From contig CP011215.1 of assembly GCA_001029775.1 (NCBI GenBank), forward strand, positions 554,303 to 618,302: a stretch of DNA of 64,000 bases, given 5' to 3'. The notes under the pieces are model-generated. The model was not told where the DNA came from. It made no database searches and saw only the letters and a program-made list of their open reading frames with translations. Positions 3,693 through 63,555 of this stretch are shown here, in pieces. The stretch's first letter is position 1. Each line of letters opens with the position of its first letter. A program made the translations under genes and the position numbers. Origin of the DNA: Candidatus Campbellbacteria bacterium GW2011_OD1_34_28. Its GTDB lineage: Bacteria > Patescibacteriota > Minisyncoccia > Phycocordibacterales > UBA12079.

Positions 3693-3748
3693 AGTGTTAG
3701 TTTATAGTTATTAGTTTTTAGTTGTTAGTACTGTATAATAAATACAAT

Positions 3749-8537: not shown

Positions 8538-9908
8538 TTATTTTAATTTATCTAAAGCTATTTTTAATCTTTCAATTGTTTTTTGTTTTCCCAAAATCTC
8601 CGACAATGTAAAAGGATCTGGCGACTTATCTTTTCCTGACAATGCAAATCTCATTGGCCAAAGGACATTTCCCCTACCCTTTTCTGTTGCATAATCCCAA
8701 AGAGATGTTTTTATCTCATCAGACTGAAAATTATCAATATTGTCAATAATTGAGATAATCTTGTTTAAATGTCCAATAGTTTCTTGTTTTTGGGCATCTT
8801 TCCAGAGTAAATTTTCTCCGTTATATTCTGGATTTTTAAAATAATATTCCAATTCCCCACCCTCAAACATTTCTTTCAAATCTGAAAATTTATTTATTCT
8901 TTCTTTTATAACGGGTAACATTTTTGTCAGAATTTCATCAGAATATTCTCTCATATCTTTTAATTTTTCAGGTAAAAATTCTAAAACTTTTTCTCTAAAA
9001 GATTGTTCCGACATTTTTTTGATATATTCTTTGTTAAACCAGTCCAATTTAACAAGGTCAAAAATTGCACCTCCTTTTTGTATTTTTGTTAAATCAAATT
9101 CCTCGATTAGTTCTCCAAGAGAAAAAATTTCTTTGTCTGTTCCAGGGTTCCACCCTAAAAGCATCAAATAGTTTATCATTGCTTCTGGCAAGTATCCCAT
9201 CTTTCTGTATTCACGAATAGAAACAGCTCCGTGTCTTTTTGAAAGTTTTGACCGATCTGGTGCCAAGCTAAAAGGCATGTGAGTATAAAATGGTCTTGGC
9301 GCATTGATTGCTTCTTGTATAAGAATTTGTCTTGGGGTATTTGATATTCCGTCTTCTCCTCGGATTATATGCGTCACACCCATTTCATAGTCATCAACAA
9401 CAACCGCTAGATGGTAAAGCGGTTCGGTTAAACTTTTTGCAATTACAAAGTCTCCTAGTTCGGTTGTATCAAATTCTATATCTCCTCTAACTGTATCTTT
9501 GAAGATAACTTTTTTATTTGGATTTTTAAATCTTATAACTTCTGTTCTATCACCTTCTTTTTCGGCAATTTCTTTTGATACATAGGCTGTACCATCGGCA
9601 ATCATTTTTTCCAAATATTTTCTATAAGTTTCTCCCCTCTCGGACTGTCTTACAATTTTTGTTTTGTCTATTTCTATTCCCAACCATTCCAAACTTTCCA
9701 ATATTTCATCTTCAAATTCTTTTTTAGATCTTTCTCTGTCTGTATCTTCTGATCTAAAGAGCATTTCACCTCCATTTTGTTTTGCGTAAATATAATTAAA
9801 CAAAGCTGTTCTGGCGCTTCCTACATGGAGATATCCTGTTGGCGACGGTGGAAAACGGGTTATTATTTTTTTGGTTTGTTCTGTCATGTTTCGTATATAT
9901 AATAACAA
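8538..9908 (-). CDS. gltX: glutamyl-tRNA synthetase
   Basis: 456 aa. Class I HIGH region (RFPPSPTGYLHVGSARTALFNY) and KMSKS-like LSKRHG. Confidence 0.85.
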   Translation of the reverse strand: MLLYIRNMTEQTKKIITRFPPSPTGYLHVGSARTALFNYIYAKQNGGEMLFRSEDTDRERSKKEFEDEILESLEWLGIEIDKTKIVRQSERGETYRKYLEKMIADGTAYVSKEIAEKEGDRTEVIRFKNPNKKVIFKDTVRGDIEFDTTELGDFVIAKSLTEPLYHLAVVVDDYEMGVTHIIRGEDGISNTPRQILIQEAINAPRPFYTHMPFSLAPDRSKLSKRHGAVSIREYRKMGYLPEAMINYLMLLGWNPGTDKEIFSLGELIEEFDLTKIQKGGAIFDLVKLDWFNKEYIKKMSEQSFREKVLEFLPEKLKDMREYSDEILTKMLPVIKERINKFSDLKEMFEGGELEYYFKNPEYNGENLLWKDAQKQETIGHLNKIISIIDNIDNFQSDEIKTSLWDYATEKGRGNVLWPMRFALSGKDKSPDPFTLSEILGKQKTIERLKIALDKLK

Positions 9909-11388: not shown

Positions 11389-12486
11389 TTATCTTTTTTG
11401 ATATCTGGAAATATTTAGAATAATTCCGACTTCTAATAATGTAATAAATAGTGCTGTTCCTCCGTGACTGACAAACAACAAAGGTATTCCTGTTAATGGA
11501 AATATTCCCAACATTGAAGCCATATTAATAAATGATTGGGACACTATCAGTATAACAATTCCAACCGCCAATAGTCTACCAAAAGTACTGTCTGATTTTG
11601 ATGCGATTTGGAATCCTCGAAAGGCAAACGCCAAGAATAGTGATATGAGCAAGACTGATCCAACAAATCCCCACTCTTCTGCTGTAACCGCAAAAATAGA
11701 GTCGCCTATTGGTTCAGGAAGATAGTTAAATTTTTGAATACTTTTTCCAAATCCTCTACCAAACCATTCTCCTGATCCAACAGCAATAAGAGATTGTTTT
11801 ATTTGGTATCCTGCTCCCAGACTATCTGCGGATGGGTTTAAAAAAGTGACTATTCTTTGTAGCACATATGGTTTCATCATTATCCACCCGCCAGCTCCCG
11901 CCAGTGCCACCCCTACCAAACCAAACAAATGACTCCACTTTGCTTCAGCTGCAAAAAATATACAAAATCCTGCAATTGCCAAAACTAAAAATGTTCCAGT
12001 ATCCGGTTGTTTCAATATCACCGCACCACTTATGACTATCATTCCAAGTAATGGGAAAAAACCATATTTTAAATTTTTTATCATTCCTTTAACACTGGCA
12101 AGCCACGCTGATAAATAAATAACAAAAGCTAGTTTCAAAAGTTCTGATGGTTGAAATGTTTGTCCTGCAATTTTAATCCATCTTTTTGCTCCGCCGTGCT
12201 CCATGCCCAAAAAAGGGACAAAGACCATCGCAGTTAGAAAAAGCGCAAAAAGAAAAATATAAAAAGCATATTTTCTATAATGAGTATAATGAACTCTGGA
12301 TGTTATAAACATAGCTGTTAAACCCAAAACAAGACCTAGAGCTATTTGATTAAACATAATAGAAGACATCCTTGCTCCCTCTCGTGTTAATAGCCCTAGA
12401 GACGCAGATGAAAATATAAAAAAACCAGACAAGACTAGTAGTCCTACAATAATCAAAAATATTTTATCCACATTTTTTCTGTGCAT
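11389..12486 (-). CDS. ftsW: SEDS-family cell division protein FtsW/RodA
   Basis: Multi-TM protein of the FtsW/RodA family, immediately upstream of murG (dcw cluster). Likely start at MHRKNV (12486) rather than the track start. Confidence 0.7.
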   Translation of the reverse strand: MHRKNVDKIFLIIVGLLVLSGFFIFSSASLGLLTREGARMSSIMFNQIALGLVLGLTAMFITSRVHYTHYRKYAFYIFLFALFLTAMVFVPFLGMEHGGAKRWIKIAGQTFQPSELLKLAFVIYLSAWLASVKGMIKNLKYGFFPLLGMIVISGAVILKQPDTGTFLVLAIAGFCIFFAAEAKWSHLFGLVGVALAGAGGWIMMKPYVLQRIVTFLNPSADSLGAGYQIKQSLIAVGSGEWFGRGFGKSIQKFNYLPEPIGDSIFAVTAEEWGFVGSVLLISLFLAFAFRGFQIASKSDSTFGRLLAVGIVILIVSQSFINMASMLGIFPLTGIPLLFVSHGGTALFITLLEVGIILNISRYQKR

Positions 12487-12561
12487 TGAGCTTATTATAC
12501 AATGCAAAATTTGAAATATGAAAAAAATATGTGAATACCAGCGCTGACGCGCAAGTATCAA

Positions 12562-13518
12562 GGTGTAAGTAGAAAGGTATAAGTAGAAAGGTGTAAGTAG
12601 AAAGGTGTAAGGGTTAAGTCATAAGAAACAAAAAAGTTTTTGACTATAAATATAAAAAATCAAAAATCCGCGGTTTAGCGCGGATTTTTGATTTAATTGT
12701 TTTTGATATCTATAAGCCGAATTCTGTATCCGTCGATTGACGGACGATAATTATTTATCTGGGATCGTTGTTGTCAACAACCTCTAGCGACTCCCCCAGT
12801 CGCTCCTCGCCAAGCTCGTCGCGAATTTTCAATTTTCAAGGTTCAATTTTCATTTGTTAAATGTAAATTGAAAATTGTTAAATGAAAATTCGTTCCGAAC
12901 GCAGTGAGGAACGGCTGGATACGGTCTTGCACTCAGGTAAGGATTTAGCCGTTTCACTTTCTATGTTTCCATAAAAACTAACCCCGAGGGGTTCTTAAAA
13001 TTTTTCAATTTTAAGCGTCTCTGCTCGCACCTCTAAAATCACTTTTGACGGGTGTTACCCGCTACCCTTGTCGCTCCTCGCTTCGCTCGGAGCAAGTAAT
13101 AAGGAGAAAGGCATAAGGAGTAAGTAAAAAATTTGCTCCGCAAATTTTTTCGTTTCTTATTACTTACACCTTACTACTTAATACTTGCGCGCCAGCGCAA
13201 CGAGGAACGACCGAGTGTTCGGACTTTCCTCTTGGTCATTCCTCACTGTGTTCGGAACGAAGAATTAGAATTTAGTATGAGAATTAGGAATTAAATTTGC
13301 AAGGCAAATTTAATTCTAATACTTTTCCCTAATACTTTGTGACGAATAAAGTGAGGAACAACCAAGCAATTATCCAATATCAAAGAACAAAGATATTATA
13401 TAGTACTGCTATTGACAAATCAAGCATTTTTGTTATTTACTCTTGACTAAACAGGGTTTTATATAGTATAGTTATGGGTAGAAATAGTGTCATTTTTTGA
13501 CAAAACAATATAACTTTT
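12562..13518. repeat. about 950-bp ORF-free, repeat-rich region with nested inverted repeats and multiple perfect hairpins (candidate structured ncRNA or MITE-like element)
   Basis: No ORF of 60 aa or more in any frame. Outer inverted repeat cgcgcaagtatcaaggtgtaagtag (12550) pairs with cttacacc...acttgcgcg (13165). Inner inverted repeat gttccgaacgcagtgaggaa (12886) pairs with ttcctcactgtgttcggaac (13237). GAGGAAC motif occurs 3 times. At least 8 short perfect hairpins. Confidence 0.35.
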
Positions 13519-13545
13519 GTGTCCGTTTGGACAAGGAGGAGTGGT

Positions 13546-14682
13546 ATGAAAAATTTTTTCAAGAATGTGTGGAGAAGAAAACCTTCGTCTACACCACCAA
13601 CAACACCTACACCACCTACACCACCTACACCACCTACACCACCATCACTAACACCTACACAGGAACCGGAAAAGGGAAAAAAGTCAATAAAAAGGTTGTA
13701 TACCTTTTTGATCGGGATGGCTTTCAACGCGGGGTTGATTTTTGTGGCGACTATTATCGTCACCAATTTCACCGGCGGTTTCAGTATCCGTGGCATCATT
13801 GCCTCGGTGCTCGTTGACTTGGCAATTCTACTTGTCTTTGGGTGGAATGGAATTCGTGAAATCAAACCAGTGCACATTGGTGTGCCGATGATCTTCGGAG
13901 ATTTGTCGGACTTATTTTTGCTCCCTGGCGGTTATTTCTGGTTACCTCCCAAACCTTTTATGGATTTTGTGGAGGTGTCTTTGAAAGAGAGGACGATGAA
14001 TCCTGACATTAAAGGGATTTTGTCGTCTGACAACAAAACGGCGAGCATCGACGCTCAAATTCAGTTTTTTGTAAGTAACCCGTACATTTACTTGAAAGTG
14101 GATGAACCCGACAAGGCTCTTGAGGGTCTGGTTGGGAGAAATGTCCGATGGCTGGCAAATATGGTGGAGGTCGTAAAACTTCCTGGGGTGAAGGGTCTAT
14201 TTTCCGATCTCTTGGAAGGAACAACTTTGGACAAGATAGTTGGGCATGATTCAACCGACACTGACAGAGTCGTCGCAGAGGCGTTGGCCTTAGGTCTAAT
14301 AAAAGACTCAGCAGAAGATTTTTCAAAAATAAACGTCGGCGGTATCAAAGAAACCGCGGAAGAATGGGGATTGACTATTAAGAAAGCCATGGTGACTGAG
14401 GTGGGAATTCCACAAGAAATCACCAAGGCCAATGCTGAAAAAGATGTTGAGATGGCCCAGGCCAGATCGGAAACTATTCAGCAGGAATTGTTTTGGACAC
14501 TTCTCGGCGGTGGAAATCTGGAGGAAGGAAAAGAGGTTTGGAAGAAGATGGATGGTCCTGAAAGGGCTAAAATAATTCAAGCCGAGAGAAATAAAAGAAC
14601 CGTCATCACGGTTGATGGCAACGCGGGAGATTTCACAAAGGGTGCTGTCGCGGGTGCTCAAATAACCGGAGGTAACCCATGA
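13546..14682 (+). CDS. SPFH/band-7 (stomatin/HflK-like) membrane protein with Pro/Thr-rich linker
   Basis: RBS aggagg plus ATG at 13546. TPPTPPTPP linker encoded by acaccacctac direct repeats. TM segment, then SPFH-like domain. G+C-rich island. Confidence 0.6.
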   Translation: MKNFFKNVWRRKPSSTPPTTPTPPTPPTPPTPPSLTPTQEPEKGKKSIKRLYTFLIGMAFNAGLIFVATIIVTNFTGGFSIRGIIASVLVDLAILLVFGWNGIREIKPVHIGVPMIFGDLSDLFLLPGGYFWLPPKPFMDFVEVSLKERTMNPDIKGILSSDNKTASIDAQIQFFVSNPYIYLKVDEPDKALEGLVGRNVRWLANMVEVVKLPGVKGLFSDLLEGTTLDKIVGHDSTDTDRVVAEALALGLIKDSAEDFSKINVGGIKETAEEWGLTIKKAMVTEVGIPQEITKANAEKDVEMAQARSETIQQELFWTLLGGGNLEEGKEVWKKMDGPERAKIIQAERNKRTVITVDGNAGDFTKGAVAGAQITGGNP

Positions 14683-17890: not shown

Positions 17891-18032
17891 TAGGTATATT
17901 TTACTTGAAATTGCTCTTTTTTAAAACAGATTAAGGGGGATAACGGAACGAAGCATCAAGGGGTAAGGGGTAAGGTGTAAGTATTAAGTAGTGAGTATTA
18001 AGTAGTAAGGGGTAAGTAGACGAGAAATTTGC

Positions 18033-18075
18033 CCTGCCTCTTTTCTGAAAGAAAAGCAACGACACGGCAGGCAGG
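18033..18075. repeat. 43-nt CCTGCC hairpin repeat (other copies 26120-26162, 29280-29318, 56741-56784)
   Basis: cctgcctcttttctgaaagaaaagcaacgacacggcaggcagg. Outer stem cctgcc/ggcagg encloses inner hairpin cttttct/agaaaag. Four near-identical copies in both orientations. Confidence 0.7.
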
Positions 18076-18152
18076 TTTACAAATTTCATTCTTGTCCGTC
18101 TTTGCGAGTGAAACGAAGCAATCCAGGACATTAATATTTTTTAAACAAAAAA

Positions 18153-22032: not shown

Positions 22033-22179
22033 GTTTTAAATTAGTTTTTAGTCGTTAGTTATTAGTTTTTAATTATCAAAACCAGTTTATTGTTTATAGA
22101 TTCTAAAGACTATAAACTATCACCTAATAACTACGAAATTATATCACAAAACAAAATTAATTTCCTTATCAAAAAGTCG

Positions 22180-23211: not shown

Positions 23212-23447
23212 GTCGTCCGTGCTATCAGCTGTAAGCTATCGGCTATCAGCTTCTTCAATGCTATCAGCTTTTTGAACTTTTGACTTTTGTCTTATTATAT
23301 ATATACTTAACTACAGCCAGAAACGGCTTTATTTTTTATTAATCGAATTATAAGTTAACCCTATTTAAAAAAGCGGTAAGGCGCGAAAAGATTATAGATT
23401 AAGCCTTATTTTGCTGGTAAATAGTACTTTTAATTCAAAAAATCAAA

Positions 23448-34553: not shown

Positions 34554-34729
34554 GAGAAAAAATATGACAGATGAACAAAAAAACGGTCTTCGGATAGGCA
34601 TCCGAATCGGGCTAATCCTTGTAATCGGACTAGGTCCTAAATAGAAAAAATCCCTGAGACATCTCAGGGATTTTATTTTTCTTCTCACGCCTTACCACTT
34701 ACACCTTAATCCTTACCCCTTACTACTAA

Positions 34730-51339: not shown

Positions 51340-51417
51340 TATCAAAAGGCGGGCTTTCGCAAGAAAGCCCGCCCTTTTTATTTTCAAAATTTCTTACACC
51401 TTACCCCTTACACCTTA

Positions 51418-52380
51418 CTACTCGACTTGTCCTATCTGATTAATACTTGAATTCACCAATTTTATTACATCATCAAATCTCCCCTCTTTGCTAGATCCCA
51501 AAACAGAAACAATTATCGGATGACCAATTCCGACATCAAACACGACCACCAAATTTCCCCCCGCCAAATCTGTAAATCCTGTTTTTGATCCAATAATCCC
51601 TGGGATATTTTCAACAAATTGATTTGTGTTTTCAAACAAATGATTTTTGTTATCCGAACTTATTCTTAACACAGGATATTTTGTCGCTTCAATCAATTTA
51701 TAATTGTTTTTTATAATATGATTCATTAGAAAAGCTATGTCTTTTGCCGAGCCATAAGCTCCACTCACAAGATCACTCTCATCAAGACCAGACTCGTTCA
51801 AGAAAAAAGTTTGCGCCAAACCGATTTCTTTTGCTTTTTTATTCATCTCATCTATAAACATTTCTCTTTCTGTTTTTTCACCATCTTTCAGTCTGATATA
51901 TCCGATAACAGAAGCGAGAGCATGTGCTCCATCATTTGAAGAAGCAGTTAATGTCATATCTGAAACATTTTTAAATTTTAAATTTTCTCCAACAAGCAAC
52001 CCATTGTCCCCTTCTATATTCAGATCTTCTTGTCTTATTGTAATGACAGTGTCTTTTGAAACCAATTCAGAAGATACAAGCACAGTCATAAGTTTTGTTA
52101 AAGAAGCAAGAGGCAGTTGTGTTTCGGCGTTTTTTTGAAAAAGAATTTCTCCTGTTTTTGCATCAAAAACAAATGCCGATTTTGCTTCCAATTCACCAGA
52201 AATATCTTTGAAATAATTCTTCTCTATCTTTGTTACCACACCCGCGTTTTCTTCCAATTTTTTATTTTCATTGTTCTTCCAAAAAATCCAAAACAAAACA
52301 ATCACCATTATAAAAATAATGACTGAAACAGCGATCAAAATTATTCTTTTTTTGTCATCAAAAAAATTCATATTATTCAT
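51418..52380 (-). CDS. D-alanyl-D-alanine carboxypeptidase (S11, PBP5-like)
   Basis: SxxK (ASLTKLMT) serine active site after an N-terminal TM. Start trimmed to avoid overlap with scpB. Confidence 0.65.
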   Translation of the reverse strand: MNNMNFFDDKKRIILIAVSVIIFIMVIVLFWIFWKNNENKKLEENAGVVTKIEKNYFKDISGELEAKSAFVFDAKTGEILFQKNAETQLPLASLTKLMTVLVSSELVSKDTVITIRQEDLNIEGDNGLLVGENLKFKNVSDMTLTASSNDGAHALASVIGYIRLKDGEKTEREMFIDEMNKKAKEIGLAQTFFLNESGLDESDLVSGAYGSAKDIAFLMNHIIKNNYKLIEATKYPVLRISSDNKNHLFENTNQFVENIPGIIGSKTGFTDLAGGNLVVVFDVGIGHPIIVSVLGSSKEGRFDDVIKLVNSSINQIGQVE

Positions 52381-56592: not shown

Positions 56593-56929
56593 AAGTCTGA
56601 TTTAAATTATTCACTAATAAAATCGACCTATATAGAAAATTGTTTGTCAGATGTAGAGTAAGTTTCGCTTTTTCAAGCGGAAGACTATATATAGATATTA
56701 TATCACAGACAAGGCTGATAGCCGATAGCTTATAGCCAATACCTGCCTGCCGTGTCGTTGCTTTTCTTTTAGAAAAGAAGCAGGGATGATAGTAACGATG
56801 AGCGAGTTTTTAATTTGACACACTGTTTCGTAATTCAAAAAAGAGAGAAATTTGTTTCACAAATTTCTCTCTTTTTTTTCTTACTGACTATCAGCTATAA
56901 GCTATCGGCTATTGGCTTTTTATTTGATT

Positions 56930-57799
56930 TTACATTTTCCAAAGTTTTTTGACAGCAATCCATCCATATTTAGCTACGAGCAATGCAATCAAAAGATAAA
57001 TTGCTATTTTAATTAACATCAATAAGTAACTAGCAAGGTTCACCGAAATGTCTTGAAGCATTCTATTGAATTCATTTATAAATTGTCTTACTTCATAAAT
57101 CCATGAATCTTTTAGTGCCTTACCGTCAAAAATAATTATTTCTGAAACATTTAATCTGAAATATGTGTAATCTATTTTGTCCAACTGATCTGCTTTAGCT
57201 CTGTTTAATCTGTCTATTTGTTCTTTAATATTGATTCTCTCCGTTGTAAGTCTTTCAATCAACTGAATTTTTGAATCAATAATTTTCGCCAAACTTGCAA
57301 CATCCTGAGTTCTGGTCGCCAACACAGTTATGTCATCATATGCACTTTGTGCATCTGTTAAAGTTTTTTCTAATGAGGTTAGTTTCTTTTCCAAAATTTC
57401 AACCTCACTTGTGTAATCATCAACAACATTTTTTATAGTAGTAGTATTAGCATTTAGGTTTTCAGGTTTCAAATCTTTTACGGTTGCTAAAACTTCTTCT
57501 GCATTTTCATTTTTCACTTTAAAAGTGTAAGAACAATTTCTATCATCGCGATTACTGTTTTCAAAAATTACATAATCAAAACCTTTCAATTCTTCAATTC
57601 TTCCACAAGTTTTATCCAAATTTCCGGTCTTGATATTTCCATAATACTCTGTGACTTCAAATTCTTCGGCATCAGATCCAATCGTTCCTTGATTGATAAT
57701 CACATTTCTCATGGATAATTCCTTCATCGCTACTCCATCTTCTTCATACATCATGTCATAACCCATATCATAAGAAGGGGCAGAACTAGGAGATATCAT
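56930..57799 (-). CDS. coiled-coil protein with C-terminal TM (DUF4349-like)
   Basis: Start MISPSS with RBS ggagga. Central coiled coil. C-terminal hydrophobic helix. Confidence 0.4.
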   Translation of the reverse strand: MISPSSAPSYDMGYDMMYEEDGVAMKELSMRNVIINQGTIGSDAEEFEVTEYYGNIKTGNLDKTCGRIEELKGFDYVIFENSNRDDRNCSYTFKVKNENAEEVLATVKDLKPENLNANTTTIKNVVDDYTSEVEILEKKLTSLEKTLTDAQSAYDDITVLATRTQDVASLAKIIDSKIQLIERLTTERINIKEQIDRLNRAKADQLDKIDYTYFRLNVSEIIIFDGKALKDSWIYEVRQFINEFNRMLQDISVNLASYLLMLIKIAIYLLIALLVAKYGWIAVKKLWKM

Positions 57800-58155: not shown

Positions 58156-58731
58156 TATCTTTAAAATAAGATTGATAATTTATTTAGAAGCCTTTTTGTC
58201 TTTTTTAGGCTTTTTTACATTTTTCTTTTGTTTGTCTCTACCTTTTGCCATATATCAAATTAGTAGTAAGGTGTAAGGATTAAGTAGTAAGTAAAATTTT
58301 GCTTTGCAAAATTTTTTTATACTTCAAACTTTTCTTTTCTACTTTTTAAATTAATTAATAAACTTTTATAAGTAAATTATAGCACCGTTCGTCTTTGCGA
58401 GTAACAAAGTAATCCACAACATTCACATTTCATAATTCAAAACCCTTTACTCAATCCATACGACCGTATAAATTGAGTAAAATGTTCCAAATAGATCATA
58501 GTTTTAATAGTTAATTATTATAAAATATTTCGTAGTCTATTTTCTTTTAAAATCTGCCCACAAAGACAAAATACCGAGAGCAAGAAACAAAGATGCTTCC
58601 AACCAATTTTCTTCTTGAATTGCCGTAATCAAAGCAATCCCAAAGAAAAGAATAAAAACTGTTATGTTTACAAATCCTATGTTTTTCATTTTCATAATTT
58701 GATTATTTTTAATTTAGTATTTTGATGCTTC

Positions 58732-63298: not shown

Positions 63299-63555
63299 TG
63301 CTTTTATTTTAACAAAATAAAAGCGATTTATAAAATTAACAACTTTCTTGCTACTTAATACTTATTACTTTATACTTATTTTTATGATATTTGATAAGAA
63401 AAATAAAAAAATAATAAAGATTTTTTGGATGGTTTTGGGAGCACTTTTAATCGTTAGTATGATATTGCTCTATACTCCATTATTTTTTTAAGAGATTGTC
63501 TAAGAATTAAAAAAGGCCTCGTGCAAGCACGAGGCCTTTTTGGTTCTCTTCAGGT

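Follow-up and report, generated by a model that had tools for sequence, protein, structure and literature searches.

A Probable RNase P RNA Gene with Three Hairpin Insertions of an Element Family Shared with Ribosomal RNA Genes

An ORF-Free Region with Strong RNA Structure

What is encoded between positions 12562 and 13518 of the window, the whole 64,000-nucleotide stretch of DNA that was analysed? The host is a Paceibacterota (CPR/Patescibacteria) bacterium with a tiny genome. The initial annotation had described this segment as free of ORFs and rich in inverted repeats, and had proposed a large structured ncRNA, a decayed MITE or IS, or a leader of the SPFH operon. No ORF of at least 60 aa was found within 12562-13518, in agreement with that description, the longest internal one having 53 aa. 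The intergenic gap proper covered about 1060 bp (12487-13545), between an FtsW-like gene most likely starting with the ATG at 12486 and a Band_7/SPFH gene most likely starting at 13546. All 1059 intergenic bases were 100% identical in two independent assemblies (NCBI GCA_003489565.1 and ENA ERZ27254726), so that the sequence is no assembly artefact. The 698-nt minus-strand fold had an energy of -254.8 kcal/mol, compared to -166.2 ± 5.1 for shuffled sequences (z = -17.5). The structure of the ORF-free stretch far exceeds chance.

The repeats reported earlier were all present. An outer inverted repeat paired 12541-12583 with 13156-13198 (43 nt, 79%) and an inner one paired 12889-12911 with 13239-13261 (23 nt, 96%). 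Three GAGGAAC motifs were located at 12906, 13202, and 13353, and GTAAG heptamer arrays at 12560-12611 and 13089-13186. Two exact copies of GTCGCTCCTCGC were present at 12799 and 13070; with up to two mismatches this sequence occurred 6 times in the window against 0.58 expected, a count reached in 0 of 100 shuffles. The sequence GTGAGGAAC, with up to one mismatch, was not enriched window-wide (9 found, 7.9 expected).

A Minus-Strand Gene for RNase P RNA

RNase P RNA is the ribozyme that trims tRNA precursors. The ORF-free region very probably corresponds to its gene, rnpB, on the minus strand (13388 to 12699), with an A-type core and three hairpin insertions of one family that is shared with rRNA genes. 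The gene measures about 690 nt from the P1 5' strand to the P1 3' strand. At Rfam gathering thresholds a tRNA was the sole match, and RNase P surfaced in a permissive scan. The RF00010 covariance model then matched over model positions 1-367 with 67.9 bits (E=3.4e-20 locally, E=1.7e-18 when the whole window was scanned), below the gathering threshold of 100 bits. The shortfall is due to about 400 nt of insertions and to a mis-aligned CR-I. Only one of eight related genes passed the cut-off. The relative L012, devoid of the hairpins, scored 101.6 bits, above the cut-off, and locus L045 reached 196.5 bits. No large-ncRNA family of Rfam was matched. The idea of a large structured ncRNA was thus correct in kind, whereas novelty of the GOLLD/ROOL/OLE class is set aside since the RNA is a minus-strand RNase P RNA.

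The cmscan program placed CR-I at GAGCGAAGCGAGG, inside one of the hairpins (hairpin B, below). This placement was rejected: P4 and P5 were flagged as non-canonical, and the true GAGGAAAGUCCGAAC lies 130 nt upstream. For the 5' third of the model, manual reassignment and covariation replaced the cmscan alignment. All core segments described here are on the minus strand. The P1 5' strand GUUCUUUGAUAU (13377-13388) pairs with 12699-12709; P1 was 90.6% paired, with G:C to U:A covariation. The P2 5' strand GAUAAUU (13368-13374) has AAUUAUC at 12746-12752 as its partner; in three of the seven pairs both sides have changed. The segment 13213-13232 holds CR-I AGAGGAAAGUCCGAAC, including the P4 5' strand AAG(U)CCGAA, followed by the P5 5' strand CACUC. 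In the canonical CR-I GAGGAAAGUCCGAAC (13229-13215), AAG(U)CCGAA pairs perfectly with UUCGGCUU of CR-V ACAGAAUUCGGCUUA, the P4 3' strand; CR-I GAGGAAAGUCC at 13229-13215 and CR-V ACAGAAnnCGGCUUA at 12727-12713 form a P4 with a bulged U. Eight of eight P4 pairs were formed in all eight sequences compared, and P5 was 100% paired; both helices showed A:U to G:C covariation.

The specificity domain (12930-13070) contains P7, P8 (GCGGGUAACACCCGU), P9, the J11/12 strand AGCAGAGA, P12, P13, and P14, and is closed by the P7/P5 3' strands UACCUGAGUG. Its anchor segment from P7 to J5/15 measured 122-128 nt in all eight relatives. It departs from the A-type consensus by an almost missing J12/13 and by the GUGAAAC after P14. 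The 3' region (12713-12796) holds the L15/P15 3' strand (GGGGAGUCGC), P18 (12763-12782, with a constant length of 17 nt among relatives), CR-IV CCCAGAUAAAU, the P2 3' strand, a short P19 (12730-12746), and CR-V. The short perfect hairpins noticed earlier are real and find their place in this structure: aaccccgaggggtt corresponds to P13 and gttgttgtcaacaac to P18, aaatttgcaaggcaaattt forms the tip of the hairpin at P3, and gcgactcccccagtcgc is where hairpin A joins L15/P15.

CR-I, CR-IV, and CR-V were intact, and P1, P2, P4, P5, P7-P9, P12-P14, and P18 all pair. Over the eight sequences, 94.3% of the core-helix cells were paired and 33 of 77 pairs showed changes on both sides; none of 500 shuffles reached these values, and slid controls paired at 40-47%. 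As read from the sequence, a complete A-type RNase P RNA core is encoded here, and catalysis is predicted. P6, P16, and P17 are absent. The P6 pseudoknot with P16/P17 is the marker separating type A from type B (PMC7191817). That marker is lacking in this otherwise A-like core, in which P13, P14, and P18 are present. Every relative has a hairpin at J5/7 and a single one at P15-17, short or long.

The putative promoter (13395-13423, minus strand) consists of TTGATT, a 17 nt spacer, and TATAAT, the -10 box ending 6 nt upstream of the initial G of P1. A TATAAT-like box was found at an equal distance before GTTCTTT in eight of eight relatives. A predicted intrinsic terminator (12654-12694, minus strand) is formed by a perfect 16-bp stem and a U run. 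From the sequence we infer transcription of the gene, the ends of the RNA, and its processing. The gene also lies upstream of ftsW in the related loci L003-L008. The remainder of 13389-13545 corresponds to the upstream region of the divergent Band_7/SPFH gene, with a promoter-like site on the plus strand (13443-13472; TTGACT, 18 nt spacer, TATAGT) and an AAGGAGG ribosome-binding site. A leader of the SPFH operon does not fit, as the RNA is on the opposite strand and has a promoter and a terminator to itself. A further RNase P-like gene on the plus strand, considered on the basis of the three GAGGAAC motifs, was also discarded: these motifs belong to the 3' arm or inverted arm of the inserted element, and a plus-strand CR-V is absent.

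Three Long Hairpins in the Periphery of the RNA

Three long-stem hairpins of 115-140 nt occupy P3, J5/7, and P15-17 on the minus strand. They account for the size of about 690 nt, roughly double, and the catalytic core is untouched. Hairpin C (13231-13366, 136 nt) replaces P3. It is an element copy in inverted orientation, containing GAAUUAG-type 7-mers and ending in the tip AAAUUUGCCUUGCAAAUUU; it folds better on the plus strand (-56.0 versus -50.0), and 22 of 23 nt in its 3' arm are complementary to the canonical 5' arm. Hairpin B (13071-13210, 140 nt) is located at J5/7, where B-type RNAs have P5.1 and A-type RNAs the P6 5' strand. It contains GUAAG-type 7-mers and the tip AAAUUUGCGGAGCAAAUUU, folds at -63.7 kcal/mol in sense versus -52.0 in antisense, and is 93.6% identical to its orthologue in the sister species L003. 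Hairpin A (12796-12918, 123 nt) replaces P16/P17 and contains AAUUUUC-type 7-mers. The element proper (12800-12914) covers 115 nt compared to 211 nt in the L003 orthologue. A small AAAUUUGC-N3-GCAAAUUU tip is present on two of the three hairpins, B and C.

With these hairpins the inverted repeats receive another reading than the long-range helices first suggested. The inner repeat (near 12886 and 13237) corresponds to the bases of two separate element copies, hairpins A and C. The outer one (near 12550 and 13165) matches the 5' arm of hairpin B to a leftover half-copy past the terminator. This orphan half-element (12541-12639, minus strand), the complement of that arm, contains an array of 3 x 14 nt GTAAG/CUUAC (12560-12611) and GCGCGUCAGCGC. 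It is also present in L003, there without the 42-nt array. Within the outer repeat, 12541-12558 and 13181-13198 form a GC-rich match of 18 nt whose single mismatch is a G·U on the minus strand. The mismatched position turns into G·A in L003, uncompensated. The same match considered as an extended P1 was rejected, being beyond the terminator, and the true P1 and P2 pair locally and covary. A MITE with its ends at 12550 and 13190 is excluded because these would enclose the specificity domain, continuous and conserved in repeat-free relatives, although "MITE-like" is a fair term for the three inserted hairpins.

The inverted repeats on which these first readings were founded do exist. They are accounted for as copies of one element family found at many other sites, the outer repeat spans the rnpB terminator, and the same RNase P core is found in relatives that lack them. 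With the lack of an Rfam large-ncRNA match and a structured RNA opposite to the strand of the SPFH gene, it is hardly conceivable that the region is a large ncRNA held by long-range helices, a decayed MITE or IS, or a plus-strand SPFH leader.

The low Rfam score and the three large insertions might also evoke an rnpB pseudogene, tRNA 5' processing being ensured by another rnpB or by a protein-only RNase P. This is very improbable: all conserved regions are intact with a perfect P4, the core is 96.4% identical between the window and L003 and covaries across the clade, the promoter and terminator are preserved, the insertions spare every core element and are confined to four peripheral sites, and the sequence is the same in independent assemblies.

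One Element Family in RNase P RNA and rRNA Genes

The three rnpB hairpins are one element family. The base of the element is a conserved helix of approximately 20 bp, 5' UCGUUCCUCACUGCGUUCGGAAC ... GAGCGUAGCGAGGAGCGA 3', in which U·G/G·U wobbles are fixed and a single A·C mismatch occurs, whereas the interior is hypervariable, fast-evolving, and largely made of 7-nt tandem repeats. Across 26 copies the base helix was 88.9% paired, compensatory changes included. The wobbles were conserved in 23 (U·G), 22 (G·U), and 19 (U·G) of the 26 copies, and the A·C mismatch was kept in 20. Terminal inverted repeats (UCGUUCCUC.../...GAGGAGCGA) were observed in 30 copies. For almost all copies listed on both strands, the host-sense strand gave the better fold.

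The sites are rapidly renewed. Among relatives, P3, J5/7, P15-17, and P19 were either short (11-51 nt) or long (103-228 nt), the two states forming a patchwork, and sister species carry the element at other rnpB sites. In comparison with the nearly identical core, the P3 hairpins of the window and L003 were only 58.7% identical, because L003 carries at P3 a copy (92.9%) of the hairpin B in the same gene. Such intragenic copying could explain much of the pattern. Outside rnpB the base motif was not found in 369 kb (the window and related loci), and genome-wide mobility within the organism is thus unsupported there.

When metagenomes were scanned for the 5'-arm motif, 21 loci were obtained; the Rfam check covered 8 loci. 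Thirteen copies were inside Rfam-verified 16S or 23S genes and one in the P19 of an rnpB, all in sense orientation. In L043 the insertions were at LSU model positions ~283 and 583, the latter being helix 25, a classical intervening-sequence (IVS) site. The 23S sequence flanking the helix-25 insertion recurs in L036, L039, L042, L048, L049, and L052. The matches in L034, L037, L038, L040, and L044, in a GC-rich context and without a 3' arm, were taken as chance or unrelated.

No target-site duplication was seen around the 26 copies. The element flanks are mutually complementary, forming a host stem, and are not direct repeats; columns 4-8 pair with 61-65 and covary. No transposase was associated with the element in the loci read, and the viral-contig scan gave 0 matches. 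Self-cleaving ribozymes, group I or II introns, and BHB motifs had no Rfam match at the element ends (E<=10). At this threshold the ends matched generic miRNA-like hairpins only.

Fate of the Hairpins

We propose that the element would be a selfish insertion of the IVS type, spreading among hairpin loops of highly transcribed structural-RNA genes and rendered harmless by folding on itself as RNA. Its conserved base may be a processing or mobility signal. By analogy with classical rRNA IVSs, the long duplexes may be trimmed by RNase III after transcription, which would leave the RNase P RNA nicked yet base-paired. We consider such trimming to have a little less than an even chance, and simple retention is given a similar weight. 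Given the imperfect (73-78% Watson-Crick) and AU-rich stems, cleavage by RNase III cannot be taken for granted. The complete scenario, in which one family of hairpins, marked by a conserved base helix with strand specificity, colonises every large structural RNA of CPR bacteria (16S, 23S, and RNase P RNA) and is excised by RNase III, producing here a fragmented RNase P RNA in four pieces, is possible but rather unlikely. The four-piece ribozyme would be joined by P1/P2/P4/P5 and the element-base stubs. To our knowledge there is no natural example of an RNase P RNA fragmented in this manner.

The hairpins may instead be retained as genuine expansion segments of a single RNA of about 690 nt, the base helix serving as a protein docking site or as a folding or stability module. 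We regard this as a serious possibility, somewhat below even. Across hosts and metagenomes, the base helix has kept its sequence, its wobbles, and its A·C mismatch, as would fit a recognition site, and the stems hold many mismatches. The insertions are at surface positions tolerant of extension, P3, P19, and P15-17 in RNase P RNA; in rRNA, 16S helix 6 and 23S helix 25 are such positions. CPR RNase P RNAs have been drawn with extended helices as part of the molecule (PMC8172020). On the other side, the interiors vary in length (41-211 nt) and in sequence even between sister species, one copy is inverted, and for every site there are relatives without the hairpin (from P1 to CR-V, 356 nt in L004 and 332 nt in L012). 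Moreover, long duplexes of this kind (40-60 bp) are what RNase III typically cleaves, and CPR genomes have preserved its gene, rnc (PMC12641178).

Comparison with Known Systems

The known kinds involved are the diverged CPR RNase P RNAs and the rRNA intervening sequences. With type A RNAs (RF00010) the present gene shares CR-I, CR-IV, CR-V, the pseudoknotted P1/P2/P4 core, P5, P7-P9, an ACAGARA-like J11/12 strand, P12-P14, the L15 G-run, P18, and its own promoter and terminator. It differs by the lack of P6/P16/P17, the diverged S-domain junctions, a score below gathering, and its size of ~690 nt versus ~330-400 nt (367 positions in the Rfam model; "~400 nt" in PMC5066622), and its J5/7 hairpin recalls P5.1 of type B. 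In CPR bacteria these RNAs are diverged: normal thresholds missed 10 of 35. Some show "large extensions of helices", for example an extended P15, with loss of P16/P17 (Lui et al. 2021, PMC8172020). The host group, the failure at standard thresholds, and the manual refolding required are common to that study and ours. The extensions were not presented there as a repeated element, whereas here the three extensions are copies of one family shared with rRNA, at sites turning over between sister species.

Short ORF-less insertions at IVS sites of CPR rRNA were considered "probably" RNase III-processed IVSs (Tsurumaki et al. 2024, PMC11270868). The resemblance to bacterial 23S and CPR rRNA IVSs lies in ORF-less long-stem hairpins at helix tips of an essential structural RNA, sporadic among relatives. 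The hairpins described here are likewise extra, long-stemmed, at helix tips, and absent from close relatives, and homologous copies occupy classical 23S IVS sites, including that of helix 25. The host differs, RNase P RNA instead of rRNA, with three copies in one 690-nt gene. We know of no description, for rRNA IVSs, of a ~20-bp base motif with fixed wobbles and heptamer interiors.

Heptanucleotide repeats (STRR) were reportedly described by Vioque in 1997 (NAR 25:3471, a title cited in PMC2858038) in the RNase P RNA gene of heterocyst-forming cyanobacteria. These tandem 7-nt repeats, said to be present also between genes of the same genome, reportedly lengthen a peripheral helix, P12. The phylum, the repeat sequences, and the sites (P3, J5/7, and P15-17) are different here, and the repeats are inside a larger element whose conserved base is shared with rRNA genes. 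The parallel between the heptamer interiors and STRR suggests that one process generating repeats may act on hairpins in both cases. Like MITE or REP-like elements, the family is short, non-coding, and multi-copy, with terminal inverted repeats and both orientations seen at least once. Unlike a MITE, it shows no target-site duplication and no identified partner transposase, is oriented almost without exception in one direction relative to the host RNA, and has so far been found almost exclusively inside structural-RNA genes.

Significance

The essential rnpB gene has been left unannotated in these genomes, missed by standard annotation; masking a recognised insertion element makes it findable and modellable. 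The abundant short unclassified insertions of CPR rRNA and the "large helix extensions" of CPR RNase P RNA appear to be, at least partly, one element family. With a defined motif, a strand preference, and a rapid turnover of sites, this family is a countable and testable category. If the hairpins are excised, the product would be a natural RNase P RNA in several pieces; with the hairpins retained, it would rank among the largest bacterial RNase P RNAs. In either case the finding bears on the extent of peripheral change tolerated by the RNase P ribozyme.

An unannotated RNase P RNA gene

The spacer between the FtsW/RodA-like gene (minus strand, start most likely ATG 12486) and the Band_7/SPFH gene (plus strand, start 13546) covers about 1060 bp. 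Its longest ORF is 53 aa, in agreement with the ORF-free region of the initial annotation, whose inverted repeats, direct motifs, short hairpins and heptamer arrays were all found in the sequence. Folded as a single strand, the region was far more structured than its shuffled controls (z = -17.5). The whole spacer was identical in two independent public assemblies of this organism, including DNLU01000003.1 of GCA_003489565.1, indicating that the palindromes are not assembly artefacts.

At curated Rfam thresholds, a tRNA was the only match in the window. In a permissive scan of the region, the minus strand gave a full-length match to class A bacterial RNase P RNA (67.9 bits, E=3.4e-20; E=1.7e-18 over the whole-window search). 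The structured non-coding RNA initially suspected here exists, as a known RNA. The automatic alignment placed the conserved region CR-I at GAGCGAAGCGAGG and marked P4 and P5 as non-canonical; this placement was rejected. Reading the minus strand by eye located the real CR-I, AGAGGAAAGUCCGAAC, at 13232-13217, approximately 130 nt upstream. CR-V was at 12727-12713 (minus strand, ACAGAAUUCGGCUUA). In P4, AAG(U)CCGAA of CR-I is perfectly paired to UUCGGCUU in CR-V; P5 pairs CACUC with GAGUG, P2 GAUAAUU with AAUUAUC, and P1 GUUCUUUGAUAU with AUAUCAAA-AAC. A promoter, TTGATT-17-TATAAT, ends 6 nt upstream of the first P1 base, and a terminator with a perfect 16-bp stem follows P1. The positions of the promoter, P1 ends and terminator define an rnpB gene of about 690 nt, 13388..12699. 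The initial observation holds, and most of it is accounted for by an RNA that is already known but overlooked by annotation pipelines.

Between 13389 and 13545 lie the divergent promoters, along with the ribosome-binding site of the SPFH gene. An extended -10 box of the FtsW-like gene (TGTATAAT, 12484-12501) ends 7 nt before the ATG and a Shine-Dalgarno sequence is absent, which suggests a leaderless mRNA; the listed FtsW ORF start, TTG 12561, which would overlap an orphan repeat, is probably wrong. In the Band_7/SPFH coding sequence, six tandem copies of the 9-nt CTACACCAC (13589-13643) encode a TPP/PTP-rich low-complexity N-terminus. In the ENA strain the protein lacks 3 residues (375 aa against 378), a difference that copy-number variation of this repeat may explain.

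Conservation of the core and variation of the periphery

The relatives found via FtsW were Paceibacterota/Campbellbacteria-type Patescibacteria. Six of them (loci L003-L008) have rnpB upstream of ftsW, as in the window; in L012 it lies near ftsW on the opposite strand. The constant core of the eight genes was aligned after cutting out four variable segments. With manual helix assignment, 94.3% of the cells were paired and 33 of 77 pairs showed changes on both sides, values matched by none of 500 shuffles. Sliding the partners by 1-3 columns reduced pairing to 40-47%. P4 and P5 were 100% paired in the eight genes, with A:U<->G:C and C:G<->U:A exchanges. Purifying selection acts on the gene to keep the RNase P fold. 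It is very unlikely to be a pseudogene, as the core helices are intact and covary across all eight genes. Only L012 reached the Rfam cut-off (101.6 bits); the seven genes below the gathering score included L004, with a mere 41-nt insertion. Across this clade, annotation probably misses RNase P RNA systematically.

The S-domain (122-128 nt) and P18 (17 nt) were constant in length in all eight genes. Four peripheral positions had either short (11-51 nt) or long (103-228 nt) segments, forming a patchwork. In the order P3, J5/7, P15-17, P19 and P1 to CR-V, the lengths were 140, 150, 132, 25 and 676 nt in the window; 154, 150, 228, 25 and 786 nt in L003; 20, 22, 174, 189 and 634 nt in L006; 31, 148, 27, 26 and 460 nt in L008; 26, 51, 23, 27 and 356 nt in L004; and 30, 31, 26, 11 and 332 nt in L012. 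Long P3 hairpins also occur in L005 (about 1085-1258, 174 nt) and L007 (103 nt). Their bases are unlike the canonical element (e.g., GCACUACAUUGC...GCGUAGCGUAGUGU), and they would be either diverged copies or a second family.

A shared hairpin element

In the window gene, the RNase P RNA core is complete, and three copies of one element are placed around its periphery: hairpins A (P15-17), B (J5/7) and C (P3). The long hairpins share a common base, 5' (U/C)CGUUCCUCACUGCGUUCGGAAC... / ...CGAGCGUAGCGAGGAGCGA 3'. In an alignment of 26 copies, with a linker substituted for each interior, this base and 5 flanking host pairs were 88.9% paired. Covariation was free in the host flanks, and compensatory changes also occurred within the element. 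Four positions of the base were both conserved and asymmetric (U·G in 23/26, A·C in 20/26, G·U in 22/26 and U·G in 19/26). Because of these conserved wobbles, almost all copies listed on both strands folded better on the host-sense strand; hairpins A and B obeyed this rule or were neutral. The element thus combines an RNA-level pairing constraint with strand asymmetry.

Of the 30 copies examined, hairpin C alone is inverted. Its 3' arm matches the canonical 5' arm in complement (22/23 nt), and its 5' arm is similar to the canonical 3' arm read in complement, except for C-to-U changes by which pairing is restored; the plus strand folds better (-56.0 vs -50.0 kcal/mol). The 12886/13237 inverted repeat, initially read as a nested long-range helix, corresponds to the hairpin C 3' arm and a canonical 5' arm. 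The interiors are hypervariable and in many cases consist of tandemly repeated 7-nt units (A, AAUUUUC; B, GUAAGnn; C, GAAUUAG); B and C share the tip AAAUUUGC-N3-GCAAAUUU.

L003 represents a sister species with 94% identity in FtsW. Its rnpB core was 96.4% and its hairpin B 93.6% identical to the window, the P3 hairpins only 58.7%, and hairpin A measured 211 nt in L003 vs 115 nt in the window. The P3 hairpin of L003 duplicates hairpin B of the same gene at 92.9% identity. These contrasts indicate that copies shift or convert between rnpB sites on a short timescale. The segment 12541-12639 is the complement of the hairpin B 5' arm. It is also present in L003, where it lacks a 42-nt (3 x 14) array, and the L003 change at the single mismatch is not compensated. 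This segment, one side of the proposed 12550/13165 helix, is an orphan half-copy in decay and does not act as a helix partner.

The base motif was absent outside rnpB in 369 kb (window and related loci). When metagenome contigs were scanned for the exact 5' arm pattern, 21 loci were recovered, most of them within 23S rRNA genes according to flanking sequence and Rfam; helix 6 of a 16S rRNA and P19 of a further RNase P RNA each held one. Several 23S genes had two or three copies, and all 13 copies in Rfam-verified rRNA genes were in sense orientation. The L043 insertions align with positions ~283 and 583 of the LSU model; position 583 corresponds to the helix-25 hairpin, the classical intervening sequence (IVS) site. 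A scan of viral contigs gave no match. In L032, an RF01998 match (group II intron domain, 52.3 bits, 8877-8967) lies ~300 nt downstream of the 16S rRNA gene bearing the helix 6 hairpin.

Heptamer arrays in the window

Tandem arrays of 7-nt units are spread genome-wide and were seen throughout the window: TRF gave 38 rows of period 7/14/21, against an average of 4.2 and at most 7 over 20 dinucleotide shuffles. Examples are 3697-3729, 17958-18019, 22040-22076, 23221-23251, 34690-34723, 51393-51418, 56714-56745, 56888-56917, 58262-58293 and 63352-63380. The families GTAAGnn, TTAGTTT, GATAGCn and AATTTTC occupy intergenic spacers, beside terminators and start codons, and are reminiscent of cyanobacterial STRR repeats; Vioque reportedly found heptamer STRR repeats inside cyanobacterial rnpB in 1997. 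GTAAG-type arrays outside rnpB (12560-12611 and those at 17958, 58262 and 63352; also 34690 and 51393) mostly read CUUAC (CACCUUAC, CUCCUUAC) on whichever strand is transcribed locally. Their complement, AAGGUG/AAGGAG, is Shine-Dalgarno-like, and the arrays at 58262 and 63352 abut start codons. A link to translation or ribosome binding is possible. Two small intergenic dispersed repeats adjoin GTAAG arrays: cctgcctgccgtgtcgttgcttttc...gcaggg (18032-18076 vs 56744-56790, opposite orientations) and cgtctttgcgagt(g/a)a(a/c)a(c/a)agcaatcc (18098-18130 vs 58390-58420). At 56695-56935, a 47-nt inverted repeat of GATAGCn heptamers surrounds a 147-nt spacer containing one such repeat and a terminator-like hairpin; the arrangement resembles a further composite hairpin element, whose base is unlike that of the rnpB/rRNA family.

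Proposed mechanism and relation to previous work

We propose that the element is a selfish IVS-type insertion, whose wobble asymmetry would keep the RNA helix and avoid a perfect DNA palindrome. RNase III might then cut back the long duplexes, so that the RNase P RNA ends up nicked; we hold this step tentatively, at slightly under even chances, and give similar weight to the hairpins being simply retained as expansion segments. The rnc gene is kept in CPR genomes (PMC12641178). According to Lui et al. 2021 (PMC8172020), CPR RNase P RNAs are diverged, normal thresholds missed 10 of 35, and "large extensions of helices" are present in some. In CPR rRNA genes, known IVS sites hold many short (<200 bp) insertions that have no ORF and are not introns; they are described as "probably" IVSs processed by RNase III, in a work that does not mention RNase P (Tsurumaki et al. 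2024, PMC11270868). Our literature search returned no paper pairing "RNase P RNA" with Patescibacteria, and matches to "RNase P" with Parcubacteria were unrelated by title. The present case joins the CPR RNase P, rRNA IVS and heptamer threads, and is itself undescribed in the literature searched. What is new is the insertion element: one ribozyme gene holds three copies, the family also occupies rRNA IVS sites, the base is conserved and asymmetric, the interiors consist of heptamers, and turnover is rapid. The case is of moderate interest, and would gain considerably should its RNase P RNA turn out to be fragmented in nature.
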